From: Candidatus Poribacteria bacterium
GTDB lineage: Bacteria; Poribacteria; WGA-4E; WGA-3G
NCBI GenBank assembly: GCA_012270875.1
Contig: JAAXHI010000253.1
Span: 1-56,778, forward strand
Direction of reading: 5' to 3'
Length of the DNA stretch: 56,778 nt
Position numbers and translations under genes: made by a program. The notes below the pieces were generated by a model that saw only the letters and a program-made list of their open reading frames with translations, was not told the origin of the DNA and ran no database searches. Numbering within the stretch: position 1 is the first letter of the stretch; each line of letters begins with the position of its first letter. Below are positions 4,886 through 50,490 of this stretch, one piece after another.

Positions 4886-6616
4886 TCAGATCACCCGTTT
4901 CACATACACGTAATACGCCCCAATAGCCAGTTCACCGGATTCATCTGTGAACTCGGTGTGCATGCGCGTTTGACCGGCAGTGAGATCGAACGTAAACGTC
5001 ACGCCTTTCGCATTGGGTGGAATCGCTTGCGTAGCTATCTGCTCGCCAACGCGAATTTGCGCTGTTGTTAACGCCAACGCCTTTCCGCCGTTGTAAAGGT
5101 CAATATGCTCGCCGGGAATGCCAACCGTTATCGCCCTGTCTTCGGCGAGGGGCCACCGGCGTAGTTCAAAACTATACTGCCCGTCTTCTGGAACCTCGAT
5201 TGCCCAATAGCCGTTGCACTCCATACCGCGGCGGATCATCCCTTGATTCCACGCGTGTGCTTCCCCGTGCCAGTCGTGCGTTGTGATAGACGTTACAGGT
5301 TCGTTCTGTGTTCCGATGACAATCGGACAGTCTTCATCAAACCGTTCTGAAACAATTTTCCACCACGCTTCATAATGCTCACGGAGTTCAGCAACAACCT
5401 CTGGATGTGCGTCGGCAATGTCGTGCTGTTGTCCCGGGTCGGCTTGAATATCGTAGAGTTCTTTGCCGTTGATAAGTCGCCACCGTTGTGACATCGTTGC
5501 GCTGTCTTTCCACTTAATCGGGTTTTCGACGCGCTGTGAATCCGTAACGATCACGCGTTCTTCCCACATCTCCGCTTCATTTCTCAACAACGGGGTAATA
5601 CTGGTACCGTGGAAAGTCGTATTTTCGGAGATTTCGAGATCACACAGGTCTATCAACGTAGGGAGCAAATCAATGTTTGCGGTGAGTTCATGTACCTCTT
5701 GCTTTTCGGTGAACCCGCCGCCGGGCCAGTGCATAAAGAGCGGCACACGATGCCCGCCTTCATAAGCGGATCCTTTTTTACCGCGCATTCCTGCGTTGTA
5801 TCCGTCTCTGACGAACTGTTGGGCATCCAAATTACATCCCATTGCAGAGCCGTTGTCGGTCATGAAAATGAGGATGGTGTTTTCCTCAAGTCCTAAGACT
5901 CGGAGGTGGTGTCGCAATCGCGCCATGTTGTCGTCAATATTGGTTATCATGCCGTAGAAGTTCGCGCGTTCTCCCGGTACATCTTTCCTTCGGTAGACAT
6001 CGCCATAAGCATCAGGCACGCGGAACGGGCCGTGCGGTGCATTCGTCGAGAGATAGCAGAAAAACGGACGGTTCTGATCGCCTTCAGCCTGCCGCTCAAT
6101 AAACGCCATCGCTTCCTGAAACCAGACATCGGTGCAGTAACCCTCAAAGGGTTGTTCGGAGCCGTTGCGGAAATAGGTGTCGTCAAAATAGTCGTTGCCC
6201 CAATAGTCAGGGGTTTGACTGATACCACCGCCGCCGTGATAGAGTGCTTCGTCGAAACCTCTATCGTGTGGACGGAACGGGTAGTTGTCGCCGAGGTGCC
6301 ACTTGCCGAACATAGCGGTCTGATAGCCGTTGCGCCGGAAGATATCTGCCATCGTGACCTCGTCGCTGCGGAGCAGTGAACGTCCACCGATGGTATGCCA
6401 CACGCCTGTGGAGTTGCAGTAGTGTCCCGTCATGATGCCCGCGCGCGTCGGTGAACAGGTAGGCCCGACGTGTAGGTTCTGTAGTTGTACACTCTCATTA
6501 GCGAGCGCGTCGAGATTGGGTGTGTTGATAACGAGGTTTCCGGTGCATCCCAAATCGCCGTAGCCTTGGTCATCGGTGATGACGAAAACGAGGTTCGGTG
6601 TATTCTGCTGTGCCAC
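4886..6616 (-). CDS. Arylsulfatase (formylglycine-dependent sulfatase family)
   Basis: LVFVITDDQG starts the protein. The sulfatase signature CSPTRAGIMTG (C-x-P-x-R) and GKWHLG are present. It uses a GTG start with an AAGGAG RBS. Confidence 0.9.
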   Translation of the reverse strand: MAQQNTPNLVFVITDDQGYGDLGCTGNLVINTPNLDALANESVQLQNLHVGPTCSPTRAGIMTGHYCNSTGVWHTIGGRSLLRSDEVTMADIFRRNGYQTAMFGKWHLGDNYPFRPHDRGFDEALYHGGGGISQTPDYWGNDYFDDTYFRNGSEQPFEGYCTDVWFQEAMAFIERQAEGDQNRPFFCYLSTNAPHGPFRVPDAYGDVYRRKDVPGERANFYGMITNIDDNMARLRHHLRVLGLEENTILIFMTDNGSAMGCNLDAQQFVRDGYNAGMRGKKGSAYEGGHRVPLFMHWPGGGFTEKQEVHELTANIDLLPTLIDLCDLEISENTTFHGTSITPLLRNEAEMWEERVIVTDSQRVENPIKWKDSATMSQRWRLINGKELYDIQADPGQQHDIADAHPEVVAELREHYEAWWKIVSERFDEDCPIVIGTQNEPVTSITTHDWHGEAHAWNQGMIRRGMECNGYWAIEVPEDGQYSFELRRWPLAEDRAITVGIPGEHIDLYNGGKALALTTAQIRVGEQIATQAIPPNAKGVTFTFDLTAGQTRMHTEFTDESGELAIGAYYVYVKRVI

Positions 6617-19430: not shown

Positions 19431-19712
19431 ATGGCAAAATTAATGAAGAGTGATGTCGTTGACAGCGTCGTTGAAGCAACAGGCCTCAGCAAGAAAGATG
19501 CGAATGCCGCTGTTGACGCTTTTGCTGCAACTATTTGCGAAGCTTTGAGTAACGGCGATTCCGTCGGTCTAATCGGTTTTGGAACGTTTGAAGCCAAACG
19601 CCGCCCTGCCCGTACAGGTCGCAACCCCCAGACTGGTGACCCGCTTAACATTCCGGCGAAAACGGTTCCTGTTTTCAAAGCTGGTAAGAAACTTCGCGAC
19701 GCTGCCTCTTAG
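19431..19712 (+). CDS. hup: Nucleoid-associated DNA-binding protein HU
   Basis: MAKLMKSDVVDSV...GFGTFEAKRRPARTGRNPQTGDPLNIPAKTVPVFKAGKKLRD. The start is set at the ATG at 19431 with an AGAGGA RBS. The upstream extension of the tracked ORF is not HU-like. Confidence 0.95.
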   Translation: MAKLMKSDVVDSVVEATGLSKKDANAAVDAFAATICEALSNGDSVGLIGFGTFEAKRRPARTGRNPQTGDPLNIPAKTVPVFKAGKKLRDAAS

Positions 19713-36525: not shown

Positions 36526-38469
36526 CTACGGCCAGATTCCATAAGTCGGTATATTAAACAGCATGCCCAATATTGTCCATAGACTCCCGACGGTAAATTG
36601 TCCCAATATCAGTCCGAGAAAAAACGGCATCGCCTTTTGATGGGCATTTCTTCCACCATATTTCAGTAGCATTAATTTCAATCCCCACGCCACCAATAGC
36701 GTGAACCAGATGTAATTGACCGCCCAACTCCCACACACGGCGGCGTAGGCTGCCGGATGAAAAGGGAACCAGAAAAACTTCATCCGCATCAACATGAGGA
36801 AAAGCGAGAAGAGTAGACCAATTCCGGTAAATCCTAACGCCCAATAGTCCGGATCAAGCGGATGTGCTAACCAGTTCTGTAGCTGCCGCCACGGTTCAGC
36901 CCCGTATATCAATGGAACGTGGGACATCTCGTGTACAGCACCGAGTCGGTAAGGTATAGATATAAGTGCCCAAAATTGTGAGAGGATCCCGACGAACAGT
37001 GCCGCAAGGATCGCAAATAGCATAAAACGACTTCGGATGCCTGACGTTGAGGCAAGCTTGAAGCCTTCAAGTTGATGCGGCATCGGATGCGAATCGAAGG
37101 TCCGCGTAAAAAACCAGAAAAAAGAGAACATCGAAAGATTATTCGGTCCCAGTTGACGGGTACCGACAGCGGCGACCATGACCCGTTCAGGTCCCGTATA
37201 GTGTAAGTCGTGCATTGGCGATCCGAGTTCAGCGCGCATCCGGGAAACCGCCGTTGAAAAAGCAAAATAGAGTCCGAAGAAGACAAGAATCGCCCAGAGA
37301 GACATACCGGCTTTCAAACAAAAAAAGATCAGAAACGCAATGCCAGCAATAAGTGCGAGAACAATGGCTCGATGCGACATTGGTTCATCCCGTGTGGGTG
37401 TAGAATTGACTTTCGTTTTCGATAAGTTCTGTAGGTATTTTCTGCCCCTCCAAACGGCGATCAGAAAGATACCCATGTACGCGCCGAACCCCTGATAGTT
37501 GATGTAAGGATAGCCCGTTCCTTCTATGCCCATCACGCTGCCGGTGATCTGTTGCATCTTCCATATCCAAAAGAAGAACCAACTTGAAAACAACAGGTCC
37601 AACGGAATCAGAAATCCGATGCCTAAAACAAACGGGTAAATCCCTAATCTCAACCACCCCATTGCGGAGAACGGTTTCTCTGTGAATCTAAAACGGTATT
37701 CTTTCTCGAATACGGAAGGGATTGCGGGAAAGATGTGGTGGAGACCGTTAATGGTATCGAAAGCCACTGTAAGCCCGAAAGCGATCCACATCAGCCGATT
37801 CGTGAAGAAACCCTCGCTCGTCATTCGCGCCGGAAGCTGGATAATCGGATATGCCAGTTTTTCATCTTCCGTCCACGGTTTTCGCACGATCAGCGTGATG
37901 CAAACCATAACGAAAAGCATCGCGAAGAGAAAACCAAACCAACTCATCACAGGCGTTAGCCAGCCCAACAGGTGCTGCTTTGTGTAGAGCGTAGAATCTC
38001 CTTCGTAGTAGCCCGAAAGAACGTCCTTATCCGCTACCGCAAGCCATCTCGGAATATACCGCCAAAACAGGTCTTTCCAATCGTTCTCTGGCGTTGCGAA
38101 CCAGAAAGCGTGCCCCAACGTGGAGACCAGAATCTCCATCATGCTGTGTCCGGCAGTCGCTGATGCGACGGATAACATGACATAGATGACAAGGAGTTCA
38201 CCTTGAGATAGTGCCAACCGAGGCAGGAATCGCTTGAGTATTCGGTTGAGTCCTATCAACACAAGGACGTTGAAAACAACCGTGAAAATGAGCGAAACGA
38301 TGGTGGGCTGTGCGGAATATTGGACGAGTTCAATGTAGGTAATCCAATAACAATTGATAGGAATGAGAAGAAGTCCAATTGCTATCGACCACCAGTAGGA
38401 ACGAGGTGACCTCGCCCCTACAGATAAAGAAGATTTTGATGGGGATCGGGTCGGTTTCGGGTGCGGCAT
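36526..38469 (-). CDS. Large polytopic membrane protein (647 aa), unknown function
   Basis: It has about 14 or more hydrophobic segments and no motif I recognise. Its start shares one nucleotide with the stop of the upstream lipoprotein gene. Confidence 0.75.
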   Translation of the reverse strand: MPHPKPTRSPSKSSLSVGARSPRSYWWSIAIGLLLIPINCYWITYIELVQYSAQPTIVSLIFTVVFNVLVLIGLNRILKRFLPRLALSQGELLVIYVMLSVASATAGHSMMEILVSTLGHAFWFATPENDWKDLFWRYIPRWLAVADKDVLSGYYEGDSTLYTKQHLLGWLTPVMSWFGFLFAMLFVMVCITLIVRKPWTEDEKLAYPIIQLPARMTSEGFFTNRLMWIAFGLTVAFDTINGLHHIFPAIPSVFEKEYRFRFTEKPFSAMGWLRLGIYPFVLGIGFLIPLDLLFSSWFFFWIWKMQQITGSVMGIEGTGYPYINYQGFGAYMGIFLIAVWRGRKYLQNLSKTKVNSTPTRDEPMSHRAIVLALIAGIAFLIFFCLKAGMSLWAILVFFGLYFAFSTAVSRMRAELGSPMHDLHYTGPERVMVAAVGTRQLGPNNLSMFSFFWFFTRTFDSHPMPHQLEGFKLASTSGIRSRFMLFAILAALFVGILSQFWALISIPYRLGAVHEMSHVPLIYGAEPWRQLQNWLAHPLDPDYWALGFTGIGLLFSLFLMLMRMKFFWFPFHPAAYAAVCGSWAVNYIWFTLLVAWGLKLMLLKYGGRNAHQKAMPFFLGLILGQFTVGSLWTILGMLFNIPTYGIWP

Positions 38470-38861
38470 TACAGATTTTTCTTATACTTGATAAAAATCG
38501 CTTTGACCTGTAATACTCTCGTGTTTAGTGTGTGTTCGTTCCCTACGGCATCAACTGTAGTTGTTTCGCCGGTCTTTACCCGATCTATTTCTTCAAAAAT
38601 GATGCCATCAGCCCCGTTCTCGCGTGCCTTTTCTATTAACCTTTCTTGTAACTCCTCTGCGGTACCTCCCTCTGCAGTAGCATGTCCCATCTGCTGATAG
38701 TTTTCGGATACATCATCCTCTGAAAAGTAAACATCCACATGGGAGGTAGGCGAATAGGTATCCCCGATATAATCGATGTCATCACCGCAAGCGGTGAGAA
38801 ATAAGCTTAATACCACCATCAGTAAGACGACGGTTTTTCCATTCACATTTACGTGCAACAT
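38469..38861 (-). CDS. Lipoprotein (130 aa), unknown function
   Basis: The signal peptide has a lipobox, LFLTAC. Confidence 0.7.
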   Translation of the reverse strand: MLHVNVNGKTVVLLMVVLSLFLTACGDDIDYIGDTYSPTSHVDVYFSEDDVSENYQQMGHATAEGGTAEELQERLIEKARENGADGIIFEEIDRVKTGETTTVDAVGNEHTLNTRVLQVKAIFIKYKKNL

Positions 38862-38891: not shown

Positions 38892-39719
38892 TTAAGACTT
38901 ATCTGACAATGTGCTACCGTTTCGGTATGAGAAAACCAGTGGCAGATGCACATCGTCCGCCAACACGTCGCCAGCCTTCAACTTCGCGTACACTTCATCG
39001 GGCAACGCGCTTTTCTTACCGTTGAATGTGGCATCCTCCGGCATAAAGAGCATCGCAAACGCACGGCGAGGATGCGTCGTCATATTCGGTCCCGCTGCAT
39101 GTGCGACCATCCCGCTGATGAATACACCGTCACCGGCTTTCATCTCAGCGGCATAAGGTTCAATTTCTGCCCACTCTGGATATTCGCGGAACAGTTCACC
39201 GATGCCGACTTCTCCGAGATTTCCACCGACCTCAAAGCCACTCGTCTTATGGGTGCCGGGCAGAAAATACAGACAGCCGTTTTGAACCGTTGTATCGTCG
39301 AGTGCTACCCAGAACATGATCGCCTGATGTGAATAAAACGGGTCGTAGGGATTATCGACATGGAAGTTCGTCGGGTTTGCCCAGGGTTGCTTAAACATGG
39401 CGTGGTCGTGATACAACCGCACGCCTGAAGTGCCAGCGATATCTGCCGCCATTTTACCCAATTGCGGGTCGAGAATCAACTGTTTAATCTTCTCGTTTGT
39501 CTTCCACAAATTGACGCATTGAACGAAGACGTTCCCGTAGTAACTGTCTTCTCCTTTTTGGTTGTGAAAGGCATCATCACGGTTCACATGTTGCGTAACA
39601 GCCTCATCAACGGCATCCTGCCACAACGACAACTCGTCCCCTCGCAGAAAATCGTCAATAACCAGAAATCCGTTTTCACGGTAAAATTCAATCTGCTCGC
39701 TTGTTAGTTGTGTATTCAT
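38892..39719 (-). CDS. Phytanoyl-CoA dioxygenase (PhyH) family oxygenase
   Basis: The N-terminus LTSEQIEFYRENGFLVIDDFL is typical, and HVDNPYD carries H-x-D. Confidence 0.85.
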   Translation of the reverse strand: MNTQLTSEQIEFYRENGFLVIDDFLRGDELSLWQDAVDEAVTQHVNRDDAFHNQKGEDSYYGNVFVQCVNLWKTNEKIKQLILDPQLGKMAADIAGTSGVRLYHDHAMFKQPWANPTNFHVDNPYDPFYSHQAIMFWVALDDTTVQNGCLYFLPGTHKTSGFEVGGNLGEVGIGELFREYPEWAEIEPYAAEMKAGDGVFISGMVAHAAGPNMTTHPRRAFAMLFMPEDATFNGKKSALPDEVYAKLKAGDVLADDVHLPLVFSYRNGSTLSDKS

Positions 39720-39736
39720 GGGGTCTTAGGTGCTTC

Positions 39737-40540
39737 TCAATCATAATTACTGGGTCGATGGTCGCCCATAAGCCGTTTCTGTCGCGGGGTGGCTTGGGCG
39801 AGAATGGATGCATCAAACTGAAATTTATTCAGATAGGGCGGATATTTCTGCGTAATCATCCGATTGGCATAGTGGACCTGCATGAGGTAACGGGTCTCGT
39901 CGCTCGTATTCGCAGAACCACGATGCCAGACTTCACTCCGAAAAAGCACCACATCCCCCGCATGGCATAAGATACTCTCTTCACCTCGGTTATTCCATTC
40001 GGTTGCTCCGTTTGGGGAACACCCAGAGAAATGGCTGCCCGGCACAAACTTCGTCGGTCCCAGTTCCTCGTACATGTCGTTGAGGTAGTAATGCGCGGTG
40101 GTGATGAAGATTGGGATTTTGACGCGCGGATCGGAACGAACATCAGCCGGTAAGGAGATTGGCAGCCAATCCGAGTGCAACCCTTGATCCGGACGACCCG
40201 GACCCGTCAGCCACGAATGCATGCCGATGCAATGAAAATCCTCACCGTGCGCCGCTTCGGCAACTTCAAAGACAGGGGACCTGTCGAGGAATTGGAGATA
40301 CAACGGATCCCGATTAAAGGAGTTACTGATGAGCTTATGGAGGAAGGCATCGCCATTCTCAAGTGCTTCATCCCGATCATGAGACGCTGGAATCGCCTCT
40401 AATCGGTCCATGGTTGCCCGCAGTTCCGCGATTTCATCGGCATCAAGCACACTGGGAAAATAGACATAACCGTCCCTTTCGAGTGCTCCCACTTGACTTT
40501 CTAAGTCGTTGTGTGCCACGAGTGAGAGTGCCTTCGCCAT
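39737..40540 (-). CDS. PhyH-family oxygenase, paralog A
   Basis: GLHSDW (H-x-D) and EVWHRGSAN are present. The start is at MAKALS (40540, AAGGAG RBS), by analogy with paralog B. Confidence 0.85.
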   Translation of the reverse strand: MAKALSLVAHNDLESQVGALERDGYVYFPSVLDADEIAELRATMDRLEAIPASHDRDEALENGDAFLHKLISNSFNRDPLYLQFLDRSPVFEVAEAAHGEDFHCIGMHSWLTGPGRPDQGLHSDWLPISLPADVRSDPRVKIPIFITTAHYYLNDMYEELGPTKFVPGSHFSGCSPNGATEWNNRGEESILCHAGDVVLFRSEVWHRGSANTSDETRYLMQVHYANRMITQKYPPYLNKFQFDASILAQATPRQKRLMGDHRPSNYD

Positions 40541-40600
40541 TTTGGGTTGCTCCTTCTGGGCAGTTGACAATAATGTTCGCTGCTTCAATCTAAAGACCGA

Positions 40601-42343
40601 TTACTCGCGTTTCTCACCCGGTTTCCGTCGAAGCTTTGATGCATAACCATCCCCTTCCGGATCGTACGAAACGGATACCTGACCATCTTCGACAACCAGA
40701 CGCGGTACAGTCCGGTGGCGACCATCCCGTTCGGGACCTCGCATTACGGAGAATTGTGCCTCGGTCATATCTTCAACCATATCGCCCCATCGGTCTTGTG
40801 GATCAAGCACACCGCCGCCCCAATTGACATTTTTCGATTGATACTTAATGAGGACCCCGCGTCTGGGGATCGGATTCTTCCACGCTAAGGCACCGTGTGT
40901 GCAACCGCCGTCCATAAAGAAGAGCACATCCCCTGCCTTCATGACGGGTTGTACGACTAAACCCATGGTATCATCACACGTGCGAATTCCACGGGGCATG
41001 GAGTATTGCGTCTTATGAGACCCGGGGACACAAGCAAAACCACCCAATCCGGGTTCGACATCGCGGAGTTGCCACGTAATGGTAACAGTCTCAGCATAGC
41101 TGCGTCCGTTTTTGAAAGTATAACCGTGTGATGGGGTCATCGGTTCATTTCCATCGTGTAGCGAGTGCCCTGATGTGCCTTGAACCGCACAGAATACGGT
41201 CGCGCCACTCATGCGATAGCCGCTACCGCCCATCCAATTGAGTCGCTGCACCACGGCGGGGTGCGCAATCATGCGTCGGAACGGCGCGTTATACGGATCA
41301 GGTAAGTCTAACAAGCCCGGCAGGAGCGGACGACCTGTGCCAGCCTGACTTATTGACCCGCGAGCTAATTCTTCGCCTACGACGATCCGATCTTGGAATT
41401 TATCCACCGCCTCATTGGCTTCTGCAAGCCACTGTTCATCCATCAGTCCGCGCACCACTACATACCCATTTAGATCCGAAAAATAAAACTCTTTCTCGTC
41501 AATGCCAGAATCTGGGTCACGGGTATAAATTGATGGGTGAATGACCGTAGTATCTTCTTCTACCCACGTCTCTTCGCCATCTGTATTTAACACCGGTGGC
41601 GGATATGAACCTTTGTAGCCAGGGACATACATGACCGCCTTTTGTGCAGGCGTTGCTTCGTCCGCCCATCCCGGTAAAGACTCAGTTTCCGAGTAGGGTC
41701 CCGGTGGGTTGGACTGCACTGCTGCACGCGCGGCATACCAGTAGCTCAACAACCTTTTCGGCTCGTCTTTCCAAGGGTAAACGCCTTGAAGCGTAGGGAC
41801 CGCGACTAAAAAGAGATCCCCTGCCTTCAGTACCGGCTGCACCGCTAACCCCATATCATCAACACCGGTCGCCAAGTCGTGCGGTGTTTCGACGTTGCTC
41901 TTGTGGCTTGCCTGAACGACGACGAGTCCACCGTCGTCTTCGGCGACATCTTCCAATGCCCAAATCGCTCTCACTCCCTGACAGCGCCTTTGACCGTTTT
42001 GTAGGCGATATGCCAAGGACGGATTTCGCGGTTCATCACCGCCGACGAGTGGCGCGCCTACTTCACCTTCGCGATGTCCTAACAATTGAGGTGCCTGATC
42101 GAGTCGGAAGCCGTGTCCTACGATCTGGTTCAAATACCAGACCAATTTCGGCTGTACCAGTAGATCGCGGAACAATTCGCGATGCGGACTGTCTCCGCCT
42201 AACAGTGTCTTACTCTCTCCAACTGCATCCAATGCCTCGTTGAGTGCCGTCACCTCTTCTTGACTGAGAACACCCGGTACGTGTAGATAGCCTGCCACAT
42301 CAAAAGCGTAATTCTCTTCATTGCTCATTACTTCATTGTCCAT
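40601..42343 (-). CDS. Tandem double PhyH-domain protein (580 aa)
   Basis: There are two PhyH-like halves. The first starts YAFDVAGYLHVPGVLSQEEVTALNEAL and the second starts FYFSDLNGYVVVRGLMDEQWLAEANEAV. Confidence 0.8.
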   Translation of the reverse strand: MDNEVMSNEENYAFDVAGYLHVPGVLSQEEVTALNEALDAVGESKTLLGGDSPHRELFRDLLVQPKLVWYLNQIVGHGFRLDQAPQLLGHREGEVGAPLVGGDEPRNPSLAYRLQNGQRRCQGVRAIWALEDVAEDDGGLVVVQASHKSNVETPHDLATGVDDMGLAVQPVLKAGDLFLVAVPTLQGVYPWKDEPKRLLSYWYAARAAVQSNPPGPYSETESLPGWADEATPAQKAVMYVPGYKGSYPPPVLNTDGEETWVEEDTTVIHPSIYTRDPDSGIDEKEFYFSDLNGYVVVRGLMDEQWLAEANEAVDKFQDRIVVGEELARGSISQAGTGRPLLPGLLDLPDPYNAPFRRMIAHPAVVQRLNWMGGSGYRMSGATVFCAVQGTSGHSLHDGNEPMTPSHGYTFKNGRSYAETVTITWQLRDVEPGLGGFACVPGSHKTQYSMPRGIRTCDDTMGLVVQPVMKAGDVLFFMDGGCTHGALAWKNPIPRRGVLIKYQSKNVNWGGGVLDPQDRWGDMVEDMTEAQFSVMRGPERDGRHRTVPRLVVEDGQVSVSYDPEGDGYASKLRRKPGEKRE

Positions 42344-42532
42344 TTGTCCCTCCTGCTATAGATAAGCAGTCAATACAATTTTAGTGGTCTGTAAGGCAAA
42401 TATAACAAACGTCTATTCCCTTCGACGAGCGGTGTCCGGCAACTCAGGCGGTCCATAATTCTAAAGGGCACCACTACTGGCTGTCCAATCGCTCAAATCC
42501 AACAAAAACATATCTCAAATTATGTCTTACCT

Positions 42533-43336
42533 TCAATCATAATTGCTCGGTCGATGGTCGCCGAGGAGTCGCCTCTGCCGAGGGTTGGTTTGGTCGAGAA
42601 TGGATGCATCGAACTGAAATTTATTTAGATAGGGCGGGTATTTCTGTGTAATCATCCGCATGGCATAGTGGACCTGTAAGAGGTATCGGGTTTCGTCAGC
42701 CGTATTTGCAGAACCCCGATGCCAGACTTCACTGCGGAAGAGTACCACATCCCCCGCATTGCACAAGATGCTCTCTTCTGTCCGGTTATTCCATTCGGTT
42801 GCTCCGTTTGGAGAACATCCGGAGTAATGGCTGCCCGGAACGAACTTTGTCGGTCCCAGTGCCTCATACATATCGTTGAGATAGTAATGGGCAGTGGTGA
42901 TAAAGATCGGGACTTTGACGCGTGGATCGGAACGGACATCTGCAGGTAAAGCGATTGGCAACCAATCGGTATGTAATCCCTGATCTGGTCGTCCGGGTCC
43001 CGTCAGCCACGATTGCATACCGATGCAATGACAATCGTCGCCGTGCGTCGCTTCGGCGACTTCAATAATCGGTGATTTGTCGAGGAATTGGAGATAGAAT
43101 GGATCGCGATTAAACGAGTTGTTGATGATTTTGTTGAGGAATCCATCGCCATTTTGAGGCGTTTGGTGCCGATCCAGACATTCAGGGATCGCCTCTAATC
43201 GGTCCATGGTTGCTCGCAGTTCCGCGATTTCATCAGCATCAAGCACGTTAGGGAAATAGACGTAACCGTCCCTTTCGAGTGCTTCCACTTGGTGTTCTAA
43301 ATTGTCGTATGCCACGAGTGAGAGGGCTTTTGCCAT
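42533..43336 (-). CDS. PhyH-family oxygenase, paralog B
   Basis: In my manual alignment, 226 of 267 residues are identical to paralog A. Confidence 0.85.
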   Translation of the reverse strand: MAKALSLVAYDNLEHQVEALERDGYVYFPNVLDADEIAELRATMDRLEAIPECLDRHQTPQNGDGFLNKIINNSFNRDPFYLQFLDKSPIIEVAEATHGDDCHCIGMQSWLTGPGRPDQGLHTDWLPIALPADVRSDPRVKVPIFITTAHYYLNDMYEALGPTKFVPGSHYSGCSPNGATEWNNRTEESILCNAGDVVLFRSEVWHRGSANTADETRYLLQVHYAMRMITQKYPPYLNKFQFDASILDQTNPRQRRLLGDHRPSNYD

Positions 43337-43479: not shown

Positions 43480-45678
43480 CTACACTGCCTTGAGTTTTCG
43501 CCAGAGGGTTGTACGACTGATCCCCAAACGTTGTGCAGCGAGTTGTGGCTTTCCATCAGACTCGTCCAAAACCCGTTGGACTAATTCACGTTCTAATGCG
43601 GCAAGCGGGTTACTTTCCCTGAGTGCCTGCGTAACAATATCGTCTCTCGACGAAATAAGATCGAGCGGTAAAGGTTGCTTTTCAATGCTTCCTCCCTGAC
43701 ATTTGACGAATGCATGCTCTATGATATTCTCCAACTCTCGCACATTGCCGGGGTAGGTATAATCCATTAGGATTTCAAGGGCATCGGGTGAGATGCGATG
43801 AATGGACTTTTGGGTCTGTTGACTAAATTTTTCGATGAAGTGTTCAATAAGGAGTGGGATGTCATCACGTCTTTCGCGGAGTGGCGGCGGCGTAATTGGG
43901 ACGACGTTGAGCCTGTAGTATAAATCCTCGCGGAAACGTCCGGCATCAATCTCTGTCTTCAGGATTCGATTTGTTGCTGCAATGACGCGGACATCTACTT
44001 TCTTTGTCTCAGTTGAACCGACCCTTTCATATTCGCCTTCTTGCAAGACGCGGAGCAACTTTGCTTGTGTTCCGAGACTTAATTCGCCGATTTCATCAAG
44101 AAAAAGGGTGCCGCCGTTCGCAGCTGCGAACCGTCCTTCGCGCGTTGCGATGGCATCGGTAAACGCCCCTTTAACATGTCCGAAGAGTTCACTCTCCAGC
44201 AAATTGTCAACTAAACCAGCGCAATTGACACGGATGAAGGGTTTTTTTGCCCGCTCGCTATTGTAGTGGATGGCGTGGGCAATCGGTTCTTTGCCAGTAC
44301 CGCTTTCACCTTGAATCAGGACAGTCGTTTTCATGGGTGCGACGAGTTGGATTAACTCGAAGATCTCCTGCATTTTTCGATTCTTTCCGATGAGATTCGC
44401 AAACGAATGGCGCGCCTTGAGTTGGGCACTGAGTGCCCGTACCTCCGAGAGATCGCGGGCGAACCCCTGGATGAATTCTTGATCGTCGTACGCAATTCGG
44501 ATCGCGCGAATCTCCAAAGGTAGGCGGCTTTTATTTTTACGGGACAGTTCAGTTTGGAAGGTAATGGGGTTCTGTTGGTCGAGTTTTTTCAGCGTTTCGT
44601 AGGTGCTTTGGAATTCATCGGGAGGCATTAGGTCGTGCAGTGACAGATTGACGAGTTCTTGGTGTGTGTAACCGAGCCATGCACAGAAATTTTCGTTTAC
44701 GGTAACAAACGCTTCTGTCAGTGATGGAGAAATGAAGATTGCGTCGTTGGACATCTCAAAAAGTGTGCGGTATCGTTTGTTATTTTCGGCGAGTTTGTCT
44801 GTCCAATCCCCTTTTTCAATAAGAATTGAGAGTTGTCCGGCAATGGGTTTGAGTCGTCCAATATGTGCCTCGGAGAACGCTCGGGGTTTTTCACTGGTGA
44901 AAAAGACGACACCAATCGGTTTACCCTGCACCTTGAGTGGAAGGGTCAGATTGGATCGCATCCCTTCTTGAACCATCAGTCGTGTCCAGTTTGTCGGTCT
45001 TTTTGCGAGAATTTCCTTAAAATCGTCAATAATCCGTGCTTCACCTGAATTGAGGATAGGTTCAAGGCTTGACCCCTTGATTTTTGCTGAGAACCCGTTG
45101 TCCAACAAGATTTTCCTGTTGGATTTCGTTTTGCACTGCACTAAATCACCGGAGGCTTCGTCAATGAGTGCGATACCTAACCGGTTATGCGGCACTATGT
45201 TCTGAAGTCCAGCGTGGATGTTTTCAAAGACTTCATCGAGTGTCTTTCCGAGCTGAATCTGCTCAAGGATTTCATAGACCTGATCGGTGCCAAGGGTTTG
45301 GTTAAAAAGGGTATCTTCCAGCCTGTTGTTTGCTGTTGCTTCAGGCGTAATTGCGATCTGAAGGGTATCTCCATGAAGCCGGAGTGGATAGGTTCGGAGG
45401 TTCGGCGTGGTAATCGGGCATCCACTTTTCAGGTCGTATTGCCAACCGTGCCACGGGCAGGTGATGCGGTGATCTTCCAATACGCCTTCGTTGAGGGGTC
45501 CGCCCTGATGCGGACAAGTGTTATTGATAGCGTAAAATTCTTCGCCTGCGTTGAAGATCGCGATGTCTTCACCGTCACATTTGACGAGGATATTCTGGCC
45601 GGGTCCAATTTCAGATGCTTTGGCAATATTAATCCACTTCACGATTTCCCTCCACGCGTGCGCAGGATTTGTTACCAT
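43480..45678 (-). CDS. Sigma-54-dependent transcriptional activator with an N-terminal Rieske [2Fe-2S] domain (Rieske-GAF-PAS-AAA+-Fis HTH)
   Basis: The Rieske ligands lie in CPHQGG...(16)...CPWHGW (aa 55-77). AAA+ motifs are GESGTGKE, ESELFGH, GAFTDA and FLDEIGE. The C-terminal HTH is AAQRLGISRTTLWRKLK. Confidence 0.9.
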   Translation of the reverse strand: MVTNPAHAWREIVKWINIAKASEIGPGQNILVKCDGEDIAIFNAGEEFYAINNTCPHQGGPLNEGVLEDHRITCPWHGWQYDLKSGCPITTPNLRTYPLRLHGDTLQIAITPEATANNRLEDTLFNQTLGTDQVYEILEQIQLGKTLDEVFENIHAGLQNIVPHNRLGIALIDEASGDLVQCKTKSNRKILLDNGFSAKIKGSSLEPILNSGEARIIDDFKEILAKRPTNWTRLMVQEGMRSNLTLPLKVQGKPIGVVFFTSEKPRAFSEAHIGRLKPIAGQLSILIEKGDWTDKLAENNKRYRTLFEMSNDAIFISPSLTEAFVTVNENFCAWLGYTHQELVNLSLHDLMPPDEFQSTYETLKKLDQQNPITFQTELSRKNKSRLPLEIRAIRIAYDDQEFIQGFARDLSEVRALSAQLKARHSFANLIGKNRKMQEIFELIQLVAPMKTTVLIQGESGTGKEPIAHAIHYNSERAKKPFIRVNCAGLVDNLLESELFGHVKGAFTDAIATREGRFAAANGGTLFLDEIGELSLGTQAKLLRVLQEGEYERVGSTETKKVDVRVIAATNRILKTEIDAGRFREDLYYRLNVVPITPPPLRERRDDIPLLIEHFIEKFSQQTQKSIHRISPDALEILMDYTYPGNVRELENIIEHAFVKCQGGSIEKQPLPLDLISSRDDIVTQALRESNPLAALERELVQRVLDESDGKPQLAAQRLGISRTTLWRKLKAV

Positions 45679-45724
45679 ATAAGTTACAGTTTATCATATC
45701 GTGAGGCGGATGTCAAGTGTTTTG

Positions 45725-45756
45725 TTTCATAAATGAAAAACGTTTCATTTGTGAAA
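45725..45756. promoter_or_regulatory. Two adjacent palindromes, candidate upstream activator sequence for the EBP
   Basis: TTTCATAAATGAAA (45725-45738) and TTTCATTTGTGAAA (45743-45756) lie about 150 bp upstream of the -24/-12 element. Confidence 0.45.
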
Positions 45757-45892
45757 TAACCCTTATTTTCAGGTTTCCTAAGCAATTGGTTCGGGTTTTG
45801 TTTCAGATTTGAAATATATCCGTAAAATCTGAAATTTCGTTCTAACCCATAAAACGCTGATATACCGCAATTGTACCCAGGTTCCGAACATT

Positions 45893-45907
45893 TGGCACAA
45901 AACTTGC
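45893..45907 (+). promoter_or_regulatory. Sigma-54 (-24/-12) promoter
   Basis: TGGCAC-aaaac-TTGC has exact consensus spacing. It lies about 85 nt upstream of the VOC gene and is divergent from the EBP gene. Confidence 0.75.
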
Positions 45908-45990
45908 GATGCTATTAACGTGAGTTTCGTATTTGTACCGCAAACTTTTAGTTTGCGACTTATTAGACACAATCTAAGGAGGATTAAGAA

Positions 45991-46401
45991 ATGAACCGTT
46001 ATTTTGAACACGCTAACATGACCGTGAACGACCTTGAAAAAGCGATCGATTTTCTAACAACTGCCTTTCCAGATTTTCGAGTTAGAGGCGGTGGTGATAA
46101 TGCGAACGGAACGAAATGGTGTCATCTTGGGACTGACGATTTTTACATTGCGCTATCAGACCGCGAGCATCCGTTCACAGGTGAGTGTAAAGGGAGGCGT
46201 GTGAACCATCTCGGTTTTGCTGTTGATGATGCTGAAGGTATCAGGGAACGTTTGCTGGCTGCCGGATATAAAGAGGGGTATAAAGTTGGACCGCATCCCC
46301 ACCGAAAACGCATCTATTTCGTTGATGCGGACGGTTTTGAATGGGAGTTCGTCGAGTACTTCACGGATGATCCAGCGAAACGGAACGATTATTCACAGTG
46401 A
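45991..46401 (+). CDS. VOC (glyoxalase / bleomycin-resistance / dioxygenase) family protein
   Basis: It shows a beta-alpha-beta-beta-beta module pattern. FEHANMTVNDLEKAIDF, VNHLGFAVDD and FEWEFVEY are present. A TAAGGAGG RBS precedes it. Confidence 0.8.
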   Translation: MNRYFEHANMTVNDLEKAIDFLTTAFPDFRVRGGGDNANGTKWCHLGTDDFYIALSDREHPFTGECKGRRVNHLGFAVDDAEGIRERLLAAGYKEGYKVGPHPHRKRIYFVDADGFEWEFVEYFTDDPAKRNDYSQ

Positions 46402-46437
46402 GAATAACTTTCGTTAGGAAGGCAGTGCTTATTAAGA

Positions 46438-46478
46438 CTTGTAGGGTTCAGGCGTGGTGCTTGCCCTACAAGTTTTTT
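46438..46478 (+). terminator. Rho-independent terminator
   Basis: A 9-bp stem CTTGTAGGG / CCCTACAAG is followed by T6. It lies between convergent genes. Confidence 0.8.
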
Positions 46479-46539: not shown

Positions 46540-48396
46540 TTACTTCTGTATCAACATCTTACGCGTAGCGGTAAAATCGCCTGTGGTAAATGTGTAGAAA
46601 TAGACACCACTTGCTACAGGTTCACCGACTGCGTTTTTGCCATCCCAATACGCCGCACGGGAACGGTTCTGATACATCCCCGCAGGTTGATGTCCAAGCG
46701 TCAACATCCGCACTAATGTGCCGTTCACCGCATAGATATGTAGTGTAACATCCGTATCTTTCGCTAAGTGATAAGGTATCCACGTCTCAGGGTTGAACGG
46801 ATTGGGGTAGTTGGCAAGCAGTGCTGTCTCTTTCGGGGTTAACGCTATAAGGAATTGTTGTAAGAACAGGATACCGCGTTGAGACATTGTATCTGTGAGA
46901 TCCAATTGCTGTGCAGTGGATAGCCACTGTTTGACATCTGTAGCAGTGAGTGTTTCTAAGGCTTGAGGATGTAGAGAAGGTGCGGCGGCACTTGTGCCCA
47001 ATGCGCCAGCGACCAAGACGAGATCCGCAATGTTGACTTGTCCATCATTGTTAATATCTGCAGCATTCTGTCCTGTCTCGCCGAGATTTGCGGCGACCAA
47101 CACCAAATCCGCGATGTTAACAACACCATCACCGTTCACATCGCCTTTGAGTTTAGTGGGTTCAGTTATTTCGGCGTTTTCAACCTGAGGCGCAAACGTC
47201 TCCCCTGCGCTGTTTGAAAACAGCACATCAGATAAGGTTAGAGTGGATGCCTTCACGGTGATAACTTCAAAGGTAAGCGTTGCGAGGATACCATCTCCAC
47301 TAACCTCATCGGCGAGAGATGCAGCGTTGAGTCGGACGAGATTACCCTCCACTTCCGGTTCGACAAAGAACGCACCTGCAGGCAAAAAATCACCATTCAC
47401 ACCTGAAACAAAGCGGAGGGCAGTATCATCAAACTGCACGGTTGCCTGATAGCCTGCGACATTTTCGCCGTTAGCGATTTTCAGAGACAATTTGAGTTGT
47501 TGACCGATATTAGGGGACTGCACACTTTCAGGCAAGAGACTCACCGTATCTGATCGGTCTCCTGTATCATTACTAATAGAGATCCCCATTTCTGTTGTGA
47601 TCGCTTCAACAAACCTTTTATCTTCGGTGTCCACAGCATCATACCATTCCTTCATATATTCCGACATCTTCGCGTTTGAAGCTGGAATTTTCCTAACAGC
47701 ATTCCACGCCTCGGGGTTTTCTTCAAAGATTGGCAGAAACTTATAAGAAAGTTGTGAAACTCTTGCGTAAGTAAAAGCACCAGCCTGTTTGTGCCGCATA
47801 GGTTCTTCCCATCTTGCCAACCATTCACCGCCAGTCCCCGAGTATTGAACTGCCGGTCTATTCATCAAGTCATTTGCGTAGTTTGTGAGATTATGCCTCC
47901 AATCCACCCAGTTTGGATAAGGTGCTCGGTATGCCCAAGTTTCACCCATTTTCCTGATGACCCATAAAGTAGCAAGTTCACAAATCGCCTCTTGAAACCA
48001 ATAATTTGAGTTATTAGGTGTAATTCGATGAATTTTATCGTGATTTTGCATGATATGACAGAATTCATGCCCAAACTGATAAGAGAATTGTGCCCAATAT
48101 GTGTTTGTCACATTCAATCCGATTTTATATTCATCTGGACCACCTCCAAAGGCACTTCTATAATAAGCAATGGGACCACCAGAACGATAGGCTATCGTTA
48201 ATCTGCCATTAACTTTATGTGCGTCTCTGAGTTGTTCCTGAAAATGCAAAGCAACATTTTCGCATAACTTTTTAATATTTGAAGTCGGAGCCGTTCCCCA
48301 ACCTCCATTAGGTTCAACTGTTATATTTAAATCAGCAAAACTTATAACAGGCAATAGCAATATTAAAAATACAGAAAGAACATATTTTGACTTCAT
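46540..48396 (-). CDS. Secreted multidomain protein: HExxH metallopeptidase-like N-domain, cohesin-like domain, 2 dockerin-type repeats, T9SS/FlgD-Ig-like C-terminal sorting domain
   Basis: It has a signal peptide (MKSKYVLSVFLILLLPVISFA). HEFCH is present. The dockerin repeats are GDVNGDGVVNIADLVLVAANLG and DINNDGQVNIADLVLVAGALG. The C-terminus reads NYPNPFNPETWIPY...GVYFYTF. Confidence 0.75.
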   Translation of the reverse strand: MKSKYVLSVFLILLLPVISFADLNITVEPNGGWGTAPTSNIKKLCENVALHFQEQLRDAHKVNGRLTIAYRSGGPIAYYRSAFGGGPDEYKIGLNVTNTYWAQFSYQFGHEFCHIMQNHDKIHRITPNNSNYWFQEAICELATLWVIRKMGETWAYRAPYPNWVDWRHNLTNYANDLMNRPAVQYSGTGGEWLARWEEPMRHKQAGAFTYARVSQLSYKFLPIFEENPEAWNAVRKIPASNAKMSEYMKEWYDAVDTEDKRFVEAITTEMGISISNDTGDRSDTVSLLPESVQSPNIGQQLKLSLKIANGENVAGYQATVQFDDTALRFVSGVNGDFLPAGAFFVEPEVEGNLVRLNAASLADEVSGDGILATLTFEVITVKASTLTLSDVLFSNSAGETFAPQVENAEITEPTKLKGDVNGDGVVNIADLVLVAANLGETGQNAADINNDGQVNIADLVLVAGALGTSAAAPSLHPQALETLTATDVKQWLSTAQQLDLTDTMSQRGILFLQQFLIALTPKETALLANYPNPFNPETWIPYHLAKDTDVTLHIYAVNGTLVRMLTLGHQPAGMYQNRSRAAYWDGKNAVGEPVASGVYFYTFTTGDFTATRKMLIQK

Positions 48397-48471
48397 AATA
48401 CATTTCCTATAGTTCTTTTTAGGATTTACGCGATAATGTTGACATAATCTCATAGAAGGGTAACATTATAC

Positions 48472-48672: not shown

Positions 48673-50490
48673 TCAATCTCCGTCAATAGACCAGGTGCAG
48701 TTGATATGACTGTCCTTGTAAAATTGCTTCAGGGCAGGCTTATCAAACCACAACTGAATCTCTTTGCCGATAATATGCCCGACGCTGCTGACTTTGAGAT
48801 AAAGTCCACCGGCTGTCCATTCGGGCATGATGTTATATTGTCCCGTTTGTGCGGCGTAGATGCTGAGCAGTGCCAGCGGCTCCATGGCATCGAGGTTTGC
48901 GGTTCTATGGGTGTCCTGCAGAAGTTCAGCCACGCTTTTCCCTTCATGTCCCTCTTGTAGTTCCGGTTTATCCATGACCTTATTCTGGAGGATAAAGTCG
49001 TCTTCGAGCGTAAAAAGACCGCTATCGGCGTGTTGTCTACTTTGGAGTAGGTTGTCCCCTACTCGCTCCGCCATTGCCAGAAATTCTGCTTTCGGTTCTA
49101 CACGGTACAGATCCACCAGTGCGAAGATATAAGCGGGTTCCAGAGCAGTTGTATCAAAATTCAACAACGTTGGAGAGTTCTTATCAGCACCGATGTCTCC
49201 AAGTCCGAAGGCTTTGAACATAGTTCGGAGGTAGTCTCTAAACGCCGTTTTGCCCCCGGAGACCCGATAGCCACGCGCACAGACGGAGGTAAAGAGCGGT
49301 GTAATGTTTTGCGGTAGAAACGCACCGCCTTCTTTCGCCCCAAAGTATAACTTCGCATCTCTGAAAGGTCCCTGTATCCGAAAACCTGTGAGATCCGTCC
49401 CATCAATAACGATGCTTTTCAGCGTATTGTTTTTCGGATCGTAAGAAGCGTCTAAGAAACCGATGATGTGTTGTTCAACTGCTTCTTTGATATGCGCCAT
49501 TTCGCCGACACGCCCATATTTTTCGGCGTTTTCTACGATTGTCAGCATCCCCATCATCTGGGTAATGGTGTGGTTCAACTGATTGCCTACATAGACCCGT
49601 GGTTCGGTTGCTTGCGGATATTTTCTGCCGAATACGTTCAGCCCGCGTTTGCTGCTTTGCGGATGCACCAGATTCGGCCAGATACCGGTCTCTGGATCCC
49701 GCTGTTTTATAATCAGATTCAAGAGGCGTTCCGCCCAAACCCGCGGTGCCTCCTCCTGTTTTTGGTAGCCCAAGTTGTAGCCTGCGTAAGCCAGATCCAG
49801 TGCCACGCTGATAAACGAGAGATCTCCGCTAATGTTGGGTGCTTTGTACCCGTTCCAAGGTCTGTTCCAAGTATTGGCATGATCGACCTGTTTTTTGAAA
49901 TCGCCGTGCCGATTGTAGTGTAAGGCATCCCAATCCTTAATATTTGATTCCCAAATCCCTTTCATCAACATCTCGCCACGGGCGGGGTTCACGGCTCTCA
50001 GCAATTCCCAGTACGGATATACGTCCTCTATTTCGTGGACAACGCCTTTCATCCCGTACCGATTACCGGTTACCAAGTCCACATAGCCGTGTCCGCCCCA
50101 ATGTAGAACGCCACTCTCTGGATACCAGTAGTGGTTGAACATGTAATCGGCGGCTTCTCCCGCGGCATAGACGTATTTGCTGTCTCCAGTGAATTGGCTT
50201 AAAGAGGCGAGCAACCGCATCAGGTTCTGCTGATTTTGGAAGAAACTCCAGACCGCTGGTTTCGGCTCAGTGCCGGAGCGATGAGATGTCATTGATCTGG
50301 GTGCTTTTAGATGGTCGGTATGGAGACAATCGGCAAAGAGGGGCATATCTGTGCCGCTGTATCTGTCTCTGCCGTATTCTATGGCTGTCCCCGCGAAGAG
50401 GCTGGCGGCTTTTAGGAAGCGGTTATTATCTATTTCGTCGGGATGCAATCGGTCTCTGCGAATCCATTGATCCAATCGATTAATGCGCAT
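48673..50490 (-). CDS. Hypothetical 605-aa protein (possibly an alpha/alpha-toroid polysaccharide lyase or hydrolase-like enzyme)
   Basis: It is a long uninterrupted ORF with no signal peptide. I see no diagnostic motif, and the function guess rests only on composition and context. Confidence 0.6.
   Translation of the reverse strand: MRINRLDQWIRRDRLHPDEIDNNRFLKAASLFAGTAIEYGRDRYSGTDMPLFADCLHTDHLKAPRSMTSHRSGTEPKPAVWSFFQNQQNLMRLLASLSQFTGDSKYVYAAGEAADYMFNHYWYPESGVLHWGGHGYVDLVTGNRYGMKGVVHEIEDVYPYWELLRAVNPARGEMLMKGIWESNIKDWDALHYNRHGDFKKQVDHANTWNRPWNGYKAPNISGDLSFISVALDLAYAGYNLGYQKQEEAPRVWAERLLNLIIKQRDPETGIWPNLVHPQSSKRGLNVFGRKYPQATEPRVYVGNQLNHTITQMMGMLTIVENAEKYGRVGEMAHIKEAVEQHIIGFLDASYDPKNNTLKSIVIDGTDLTGFRIQGPFRDAKLYFGAKEGGAFLPQNITPLFTSVCARGYRVSGGKTAFRDYLRTMFKAFGLGDIGADKNSPTLLNFDTTALEPAYIFALVDLYRVEPKAEFLAMAERVGDNLLQSRQHADSGLFTLEDDFILQNKVMDKPELQEGHEGKSVAELLQDTHRTANLDAMEPLALLSIYAAQTGQYNIMPEWTAGGLYLKVSSVGHIIGKEIQLWFDKPALKQFYKDSHINCTWSIDGD

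Follow-up and report, generated by a model that had tools for sequence, protein, structure and literature searches.

A gene for a sigma-54-dependent transcriptional activator that begins with a Rieske domain, and a VOC-family gene diverging from it, were identified in a 56,778-nt stretch of DNA (contig JAAXHI010000253.1, assembly GCA_012270875.1; hereafter the window, in forward-strand coordinates) from Candidatus Poribacteria, a group of uncultivated sponge-associated bacteria. The reading that best explains the observations jointly, to which we assign a probability of about 0.6, is that this region is a self-contained sigma-54 switch in which the Rieske, GAF and PAS domains of the activator (here the regulator) would gate its activity, the VOC gene would be the output, and the ancestral partner would have been R613, a 613-aa Rieske protein. 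At the level of the module, the comparative data make us highly confident that a well-delimited sigma-54 switch is present. An earlier note, made from the letters of the same DNA, had recognized several of its elements. The features are listed in Table 1.

The regulator is encoded on the minus strand. An open reading frame (ORF) of 732 aa, the length given in the earlier note, is indeed present (43480-45678, from ATG 45678), but the true start is probably GTG 45642, with a product of 720 aa; residues are numbered below by one or the other, as indicated. GGAGGG lies 5 nt upstream of this GTG, gene callers place the start of 720-721-aa orthologues at the equal position, and the sigma-70-like promoter at 45716-45688 would put ATG 45678 at the extreme 5′ end of the mRNA, thus without room for a ribosome-binding site. 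Pfam searches confirmed the GAF and PAS regions, the complete AAA+ core and the Fis-type helix-turn-helix (HTH) domain that had been read previously, and all six domains of the regulator scored above the Pfam cut-offs. Within the AAA+ domain, Walker A (GESGTGKE), DEIGE (Walker B) and ESELFGH were present, and the protein is a complete bacterial enhancer-binding protein (bEBP). NCBIfam equivalog models (NifA, AtoC, NorR and others) covered the AAA+/HTH part only and all remained below their cut-offs; therefore, the regulator is a bEBP of no named type.

The region between the two genes contains an exact TGGCAC-N5-TTGC element (TGGCACAAAACTTGC) where the earlier note had located it, 84 nt before the VOC start codon (about 85 nt in that note), and this is the sole exact match within the window. 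Upstream of it are three copies of a dyad box with the pattern GTTTCA-N4-TGAAA(C). Boxes 1 and 2 are the two adjacent palindromes previously seen and proposed as plausible bEBP binding sites; the count of two did not hold, as a third box was found nearer the promoter. The sigma-70-like promoter of the regulator gene, whose TTGACA recurs in loci L004 and L005, directly adjoins boxes 1 and 2. A candidate IHF-like site falls in a conserved block (AAAACGYTGATATA) of the locus alignment, and the only HU/IHF-family gene detected in the own genome is in this window (19443-19706).

Genome-wide scans for boxes and promoters were carried out on the own genome assembly of 5.74 Mb. The exact sequence TTTCA-N4-TGAAA was found 20 times, with 3 of the 20 within 90 bp here, and the intergenic region of the window was the only place in this genome where boxes precede a -24/-12 motif. 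Two candidates for a second regulon member were rejected: relaxed matches on contig C448 lie inside a WD40-repeat coding sequence ('SPDGTTLA' spells TGGCAC..TTGC), and the match on contig C310 has a weak half-box only. The WD40 repeats of C448 (~5600-5900; 'FSPDGTTLA...LWDV') repeatedly spell TGGCAC-N5-TTGC and half-boxes and are a systematic source of false sigma-54 matches in this genome. The C310 match, an intergenic TGGCACGGTTCTTGC (~8790, minus strand) with a 225-aa ORF ~525 nt downstream of it, could be a genuine sigma-54 promoter for another activator. An rpoN gene, which the earlier note had left to be looked for elsewhere in the genome, was found on contig C290 with the AID, CBD and DBD domains; its final residues are split onto another contig end.

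A six-frame search of 176 Poribacteria genomes detected orthologues of the regulator in ~48 genomes belonging to 7 genera, including 32 of the 65 genomes of its own genus, and a word-based search returned 25 protein clusters in which the complete architecture recurs, those with a named source being from Poribacteria. Across ~45 orthologous loci, the N-terminal 311 aa were 48-93% identical to those of the window's regulator; these loci retain the promoter, and most of them also recognizable boxes, whatever the gene behind it. Cis elements were scanned in the ~48 extracted loci. The -24/-12 element was present in 41 of them, and an alignment of 43 loci showed TTGG-CA..AAA.TTGC to be at least 90% conserved. 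Under the strict N4 pattern, at least three boxes were found in 31 of the ~48 loci; in genus g15, the promoter-nearer boxes have a 3-nt spacer (GTTTCAAATTGAAAC). Boxes 1 and 2 hold a distance of ~80-100 nt from the regulator start codon, and in 25 of 41 loci the distance between box 3 and the promoter is 90-92 nt. Insertions of ~90-250 nt separate box 3 from boxes 1 and 2 in loci such as L019, L021, L024, L032, and L004, with the distance of box 3 to the promoter held, and in L028 the ~20 nt lost between box 3 and the promoter amount to approximately two helical turns. The spacing of box 3, held despite insertions, thus fits a functional enhancer-promoter pair and not chance motifs. Identity of the HTH_8 domain within the genus is 96-98%, in agreement with the conserved boxes.

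In the own genus, 32 of the 65 genomes had both the regulator and the VOC gene, 8 had the VOC gene without the regulator, and 25 had neither. Reading of four regulator-less VOC loci (L142-L145) showed no -24/-12 motif upstream of the VOC gene and no boxes in its upstream spacer; isolated box-like matches with one mismatch were present elsewhere only. Since promoter and boxes vanish together with the regulator, this protein appears to be the user of these sites, and this is the best in-silico evidence available. The view that the palindromes and the -24/-12 element act as its cognate enhancer and promoter is thereby supported, and the suggestion of the earlier note regarding the palindromes was borne out. 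At one locus (L038, G174:C1 ~3444900), the regulator gene is frameshifted in Walker A (GESGYRQR...) and is a pseudogene, with the promoter, the boxes and the cupin and VOC genes remaining.

The ligand motif of the Rieske domain, C43-P-H45-X16-C62-P-W-H65 in the 720-aa numbering, corresponds to the CPH...CPWH reported in the earlier note at aa 55-77 of the 732-aa ORF. The module had been described as NirD-like; its Rieske nature was upheld, whereas the NirD label was dropped, because ferredoxin components of ring-hydroxylating dioxygenases match better. Thirty solved Rieske proteins matched the N-terminal domain at E <= 0.001, the best being 2qpz (E 8e-15) and 5bok (E 9e-15), and the dioxygenase ferredoxins 2qpz, 5bok and 1vck spanned E 8e-15 to 2e-12. 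These ferredoxins share with the regulator's domain the ligand motif, the size of ~100 aa and the lack of a high-potential disulfide; they are free-standing electron carriers, whereas the module described here is fused to a transcription activator. In high-potential Rieske proteins, an extra pair of cysteines in the ligand loops forms a disulfide, and its absence marks the low-potential ferredoxin type. The second loop cysteine of the high-potential bc1/b6f type is absent from the regulator, in which the loops read CPHQGG and CPWHGW; the domain is therefore placed, from general knowledge of the classes, with the low-potential ferredoxin type. All four ligands and the residues next to them were invariant in every intact orthologue, even where the Rieske domain was only 38% identical to that of the window. 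It is likely that the domain binds a [2Fe-2S] cluster. A divergent paralogue with 37% identity (L058, G037:C503:1715-2587) has CPL in place of CPH and a deletion of the second CXXH; the same genome also carries a canonical copy (L057).

The VOC gene was found as described previously, with a strong ribosome-binding site and a clean terminator. Its assignment as glyoxalase I was rejected, as the NCBIfam GloA and TIGR00068 models gave 22.7 and 17.2 bits, respectively, against cut-offs of 165 and 120. In comparison with the best PDB match (4mtq), the second metal ligand Glu aligns to Ser, and only membership of the VOC superfamily can be stated.

The genes behind the promoter differ among loci. 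The VOC gene stands alone in most of the own genus, including the window, follows a weak-cupin gene in L037-L039, and follows a prolidase-like M24 gene in L005, L029, L040-42, and L060. R613 takes this position in L003, L004, L049, and L050; R613 then VOC is found in G166 (L146), VOC then R613 in G037 (L057), and R613 comes first in G169 (L031), where the sequence read ends before any VOC gene. In genus g15, a 592-aa paralogue is located behind the promoter and is followed by an R613 orthologue in L044, L048, and L052, the three loci read that far. The most distant relatives (L055 and L056) have an unknown 319-aa gene and an R613-like gene. In a tree from which the Rieske columns were left out, each outgroup lineage with an identifiable target has an R613-type target, and the VOC-only state takes a nested position within the genus. 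As judged from these distributions, the ancestral partner is R613 and the VOC gene, an operon companion of R613 in G166 and G037, is a derived target, a point missed by the earlier note.

In R613, a ferredoxin-type Rieske domain at the N terminus is combined with an all-helical domain of ~470 aa (AlphaFold 2 model with a predicted local distance difference test score, pLDDT, of 83). For the helical domain, no Pfam model was found, and Foldseek matches to PDB structures covered the Rieske part only; many His, Asp and Glu residues in it are invariant. The family has more than 1000 proteins in several phyla, with 72-91% identity to the query even in Latescibacterota, and its loci here also include L003, L004, L044-L053, and L146. 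The R613 gene of the own genome (contig C154:2773-4611, locus L006; 88% identity) was considered as a target in trans and rejected, as its upstream region has neither a -24/-12 element nor a box, only a sigma-70-like TTGTAA-N17-TATAAT.

Based on sequence and comparison, the switch would operate as follows. The regulator gene would be transcribed from its own sigma-70-type promoter, and the Fis-type HTH of its product would bind the three boxes, two beside that promoter and one ~91 nt upstream of the -24/-12 element. A bend of HU/IHF type would bring the AAA+ ring to the sigma-54 RNA polymerase, and ATP hydrolysis would open the promoter of the VOC gene. The N-terminal sensory domains of bEBPs usually inhibit the AAA+ domain until a signal arrives, as established for NorR and XylR/DmpR. 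By this analogy, the ferredoxin-type, low-potential Rieske module may be read as a signal-dependent gating layer on top of GAF and PAS, which together would gate the AAA+ domain. The most likely signal would be the oxidation state or integrity of the cluster, reflecting cellular redox or electron supply, O2, or damage by oxidants or nitric oxide (NO). The family would originally have controlled R613, with the VOC gene sometimes an operon partner, and the same cassette would drive the VOC gene alone in the own genus. With R613 as the original target, the output would most likely be part of a redox-enzyme pathway.

It is very improbable that the motifs arose by chance and that the regulator controls other genes instead, such as the Fe(II)/2-oxoglutarate oxygenase (PhyH) array next to it. 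The -24/-12 consensus alone is not enriched, as 4 matches with up to one mismatch were found in the window against 3.6 expected, which is not significant by itself; however, the promoter and boxes are conserved in ~45 loci at fixed spacing across changes of target gene and disappear together with the regulator, and these comparative data contradict a chance origin. Coupling to the PhyH array had been suggested in the earlier note and was rejected. Scans of the window showed no sigma-54 element or box upstream of any gene of the array, the first of these genes is preceded by a sigma-70-like promoter of its own, the regulator of the distant locus L003 is not followed by PhyH genes, and no second site was found in the own genome.

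Several observations weigh against the reading drawn above. Rieske is the least constrained and fastest-evolving folded domain, with a ratio of nonsynonymous to synonymous substitution (dN/dS) within the genus of 0.20, against 0.118 for PAS, 0.087 for GAF and 0.035 for AAA+. The identity of GAF to its orthologues is always higher (57-97% vs 38-94% for Rieske); among the sensory domains GAF is the best conserved, and it may act as the main sensor. In the sister species G170 and G121, residues 6-117 of the 720-aa protein have been removed by one and the same precise in-frame deletion, with the junction MKWIN|TDQVY (L059, G170:C1 ~2191200; L060, G121:C18 ~95800). At both loci the ORF is intact, as are the promoter, the three boxes and the target genes, and since the divergence of the two species (dS 0.40) the remaining regulator gene has evolved at a dN/dS of 0.078; the persistence of these alleles under constraint thus indicates that the switch can work without Rieske. 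In addition, the loop of the AAA+ domain reads GAFTDA, with D for G at position 5 of the canonical GAFTGA. This form was invariant in all 33 full-length family f1 orthologues and is likewise carried by a second bEBP of the own genome; GAYTGA replaces it in L003, the sole full-length locus of genus g15. Because the GAFTDA loop is conserved beside conserved promoters, it is argued to be functional. Finally, the AlphaFold model of the full-length regulator, for which the alignment was shallow (24 close sequences), has a mean pLDDT of 53 and is uninformative on domain contacts.

The rates and the deletion would also be accounted for if Rieske were an accessory or decaying appendage that adds little or only stabilizes the protein, with the signal entering by GAF (a small ligand or metal) and PAS. 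The ligand-less paralogue in G037 agrees with this, as does the frequent loss or breakage of the regulator gene, which is absent from approximately half of the genus and frameshifted in G174. We nevertheless consider it quite unlikely, for the four ligands and their surroundings remain invariant in all intact orthologues, the domain has been kept in 7 genera, and a dN/dS of 0.20, although the highest in the protein, is on these estimates clear purifying selection and not decay. What emerges is that Rieske seems to serve as a modulatory input rather than as a core part, and the Rieske-less alleles would be switches with that gating layer removed.

A different role for the domain, which we regard as doubtful, is the sensing of a partner or of electron flow instead of bulk redox. 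Resembling a Rieske ferredoxin, it would dock to, or exchange electrons with, the reductase or acceptor of R613 and so report whether the chain is loaded or idle. R613, the ancestral and most widespread target, does have a ferredoxin-type Rieske domain that shares 40% identity over 73 aa with that of the regulator, the sequences closest to the regulator's own domain are small free-standing Rieske ferredoxins, whose role is to carry electrons, and a fast-evolving surface around fixed ligands would fit co-evolution with a partner. On the other hand, no reductase gene is consistently linked to the regulator locus, R613 of the own genome is on another contig under a sigma-70-like promoter without boxes, and the regulator's Rieske domain is no closer to that of R613 than to those of other small Poribacteria Rieske proteins (36-42% identity). 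Sensing through the state of the cluster, as part of a self-contained switch, remains the reading we prefer.

The earlier note knew of no characterised Rieske-bEBP, and full-text literature searches likewise found neither such a protein nor any paper describing the architecture. When 1.84 billion representative proteins were searched exhaustively by HMMER with the Rieske domain, the sole bEBP among the best 150 of the 14,902 matches was another Poribacteria protein. The best 80 loci from a motif scan across 185,579 species genomes comprised six full-length fusions, all from Poribacteria, and 74 Rieske ORFs without a bEBP continuation, 69 of which were shorter than 200 aa. Neither search showed a Rieske-bEBP fusion outside Poribacteria, although more distant Rieske domains would escape both. 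From these matches, the Rieske domain looks to have been recruited once, within Poribacteria, from a widespread family of small ferredoxins. The type of sensor domain is undescribed, and the sigma-54 activator switch itself is of a known kind. Two proteins of ~450 aa, P0033 and P0034, with an N-terminal protoglobin and two Rieske domains, were also observed and are another possible sensor-type Rieske fusion.

To our knowledge, the iron-sulfur transcription sensors described so far (FNR, IscR, SoxR, NsrR, RsrR, OrpR and the Wbl proteins) all rely on sites that are rich in Cys and belong to other folds. The organization of the locus is similar to that of norR-norVW in Escherichia coli, where NorR, with GAF-AAA+-HTH architecture, acts from three enhancer sites upstream of a sigma-54 promoter that diverges from its gene, and where inhibition of the AAA+ domain is lifted through a metal centre of the sensory region. 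In NorR, NO is sensed by a mononuclear non-haem iron bound within GAF, and Rieske and PAS are both lacking. The NCBIfam NorR model matched the regulator on AAA+/HTH only, and the score of 345 bits stayed below the cut-off of 476.

For bEBPs, sensing through metals or Fe-S clusters has precedent in OrpR (PMC8359166) and PexR (PMC12754779), of which OrpR is the nearest characterised counterpart of the regulator. OrpR (DVU2106) of Desulfovibrio vulgaris Hildenborough is a sigma-54 activator that senses redox through a [4Fe-4S] cluster in its PAS domain and controls a small dedicated regulon of divergent operons with the involvement of IHF (PMC8359166). The regulator resembles it in the small dedicated regulon, the divergent operons, the IHF-like site and a predicted iron-sulfur N-terminal sensory region. 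The sensing parts are non-homologous: the cluster of OrpR is held by PAS cysteines, whereas that of the regulator would be a [2Fe-2S] cluster in a separate Rieske domain (2 Cys and 2 His) preceding GAF and PAS, and the regulator has one conserved cysteine in the PAS region (C320), not the OrpR-type set. PexR of Myxococcus xanthus is a bEBP autoinhibited by its N-terminal metal-binding domain, in which a Zn/Fe site in GAF senses H2O2; it binds dyad repeats and acts also on a sigma-70-type promoter (PMC12754779). Unlike the regulator, PexR has no Fe-S cluster or Rieske domain. As boxes 1 and 2 abut the regulator's own sigma-70-type promoter, action of the regulator on that promoter is possible, as for PexR.

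Table 1. Features of the regulator-VOC region in window coordinates
Feature	Position	Strand	Remarks
Regulator CDS (bEBP)	43480..45642	-	720 aa from GTG 45642; longer ORF to ATG 45678, 732 aa
HTH_8 (PF02954), Fis-type HTH	43486..43605	-	42 bits; aa 692-731 of 732
AAA_lid_14	aa 601-679 of 732	-	95.1 bits, Pfam
AAA+ sigma-54 interaction domain (Sigma54_activat, PF00158)	43894..44394	-	238.4 bits (cut-off 20.2); aa 429-595 of 732
GAFTDA loop	44152-44169	-	Inside AAA+ domain
Walker A, GESGTGKE	44287-44310	-	Inside AAA+ domain
PAS domain (PAS_9, PF13426)	44443..44745	-	53.2 bits; aa 312-412 of 732
GAF domain (GAF_2, PF13185)	44815..45246	-	48.7 bits; aa 145-288 of 732
Rieske [2Fe-2S] domain	45394..45639	-	PF00355 72.8 bits (cut-off 20.3), PF13806 47.1 bits (cut-off 27); aa 14-95 of 732
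Rieske ligand codons (720-aa numbering)	C43 45514-45516; H45 45508-45510; C62 45457-45459; H65 45448-45450	-	
Putative sigma-70-like promoter of regulator gene, TTGACA-17 nt-TG-n-TAAACT	45688..45716	-	Consensus scan 10/12 and extended -10
Enhancer box 1, TTTCATAAATGAAA	45725..45738	.	Dyad box; same offset from regulator start in genus g1 loci; binding predicted
Enhancer box 2, TTTCATTTGTGAAA	45743..45756	.	Dyad box; centre 18 bp from centre of box 1; binding predicted
Enhancer box 3, TTTCAGATTTGAAA	45801..45814	.	92 nt upstream of -24 element; binding predicted
Putative IHF-like site, TATCAGCGTTTTA	45850..45862	-	WATCAR-N4-TTR; between box 3 and promoter
Sigma-54 promoter, TGGCACAAAACTTGC	45893..45907	+	-24 TGGCAC, -12 TTGC
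Ribosome-binding site of VOC gene, AAGGAGG	45977..45983	+	Direct sequence reading
VOC-family gene	45991..46401	+	136 aa; PF00903 (Pfam Glyoxalase) 43.8 bits; predicted driven gene in own genome
Intrinsic terminator	46434..46478	+	Long hairpin then U-tract; fold -25.9 kcal/mol, z -4.66

The PhyH array consists of four genes on the minus strand (38892-43336); the 580-aa protein encoded at 40601-42343 has two PhyH matches, and the 267-aa and 283-aa copies are close paralogues. Beyond it, also on the minus strand, are a small lipoprotein-like ORF (38469-38861) and a gene for a 647-aa membrane protein (36526-38469) with DUF6785 (523 bits) and DUF6784. On the other side of the switch, both on the minus strand, are a gene for a protein with cohesin, dockerin and FlgD_ig/Por_Secre_tail domains (46540-48453), which is absent at this position in L005, and a Pectate_lyase_2 homologue (48673-50490), which is syntenic with L005.

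As the switch comprises no more than a single regulator, three boxes, a single promoter and a small gene, it would be easy to test. The Rieske-deleted variants, the ligand-less paralogue and the regulator-less loci are natural controls, so that tests in a heterologous host would be practical despite the uncultivated state of Poribacteria. The switch further draws attention to R613, a highly conserved and unstudied protein, as the original regulated partner. A more specific proposal, which we hold tentatively and at slightly less than even odds, is that this is the first transcription factor to sense by a Rieske-fold [2Fe-2S] cluster, in which a low-potential, His-ligated and hence proton-coupled cluster would, by its redox state, control a sigma-54 AAA+ motor, and the Rieske-protein/VOC pathway would thereby be expressed in step with swings of electron supply or oxygen in the sponge host. 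If this is true, the in-frame Rieske-less variants would be natural 'unlocked' versions of the switch produced by evolution, and a Rieske-fold sensor would add 2His/2Cys ligation, with its pH-dependent, low-potential chemistry, and a new type of input domain to the sigma-54 activator family.

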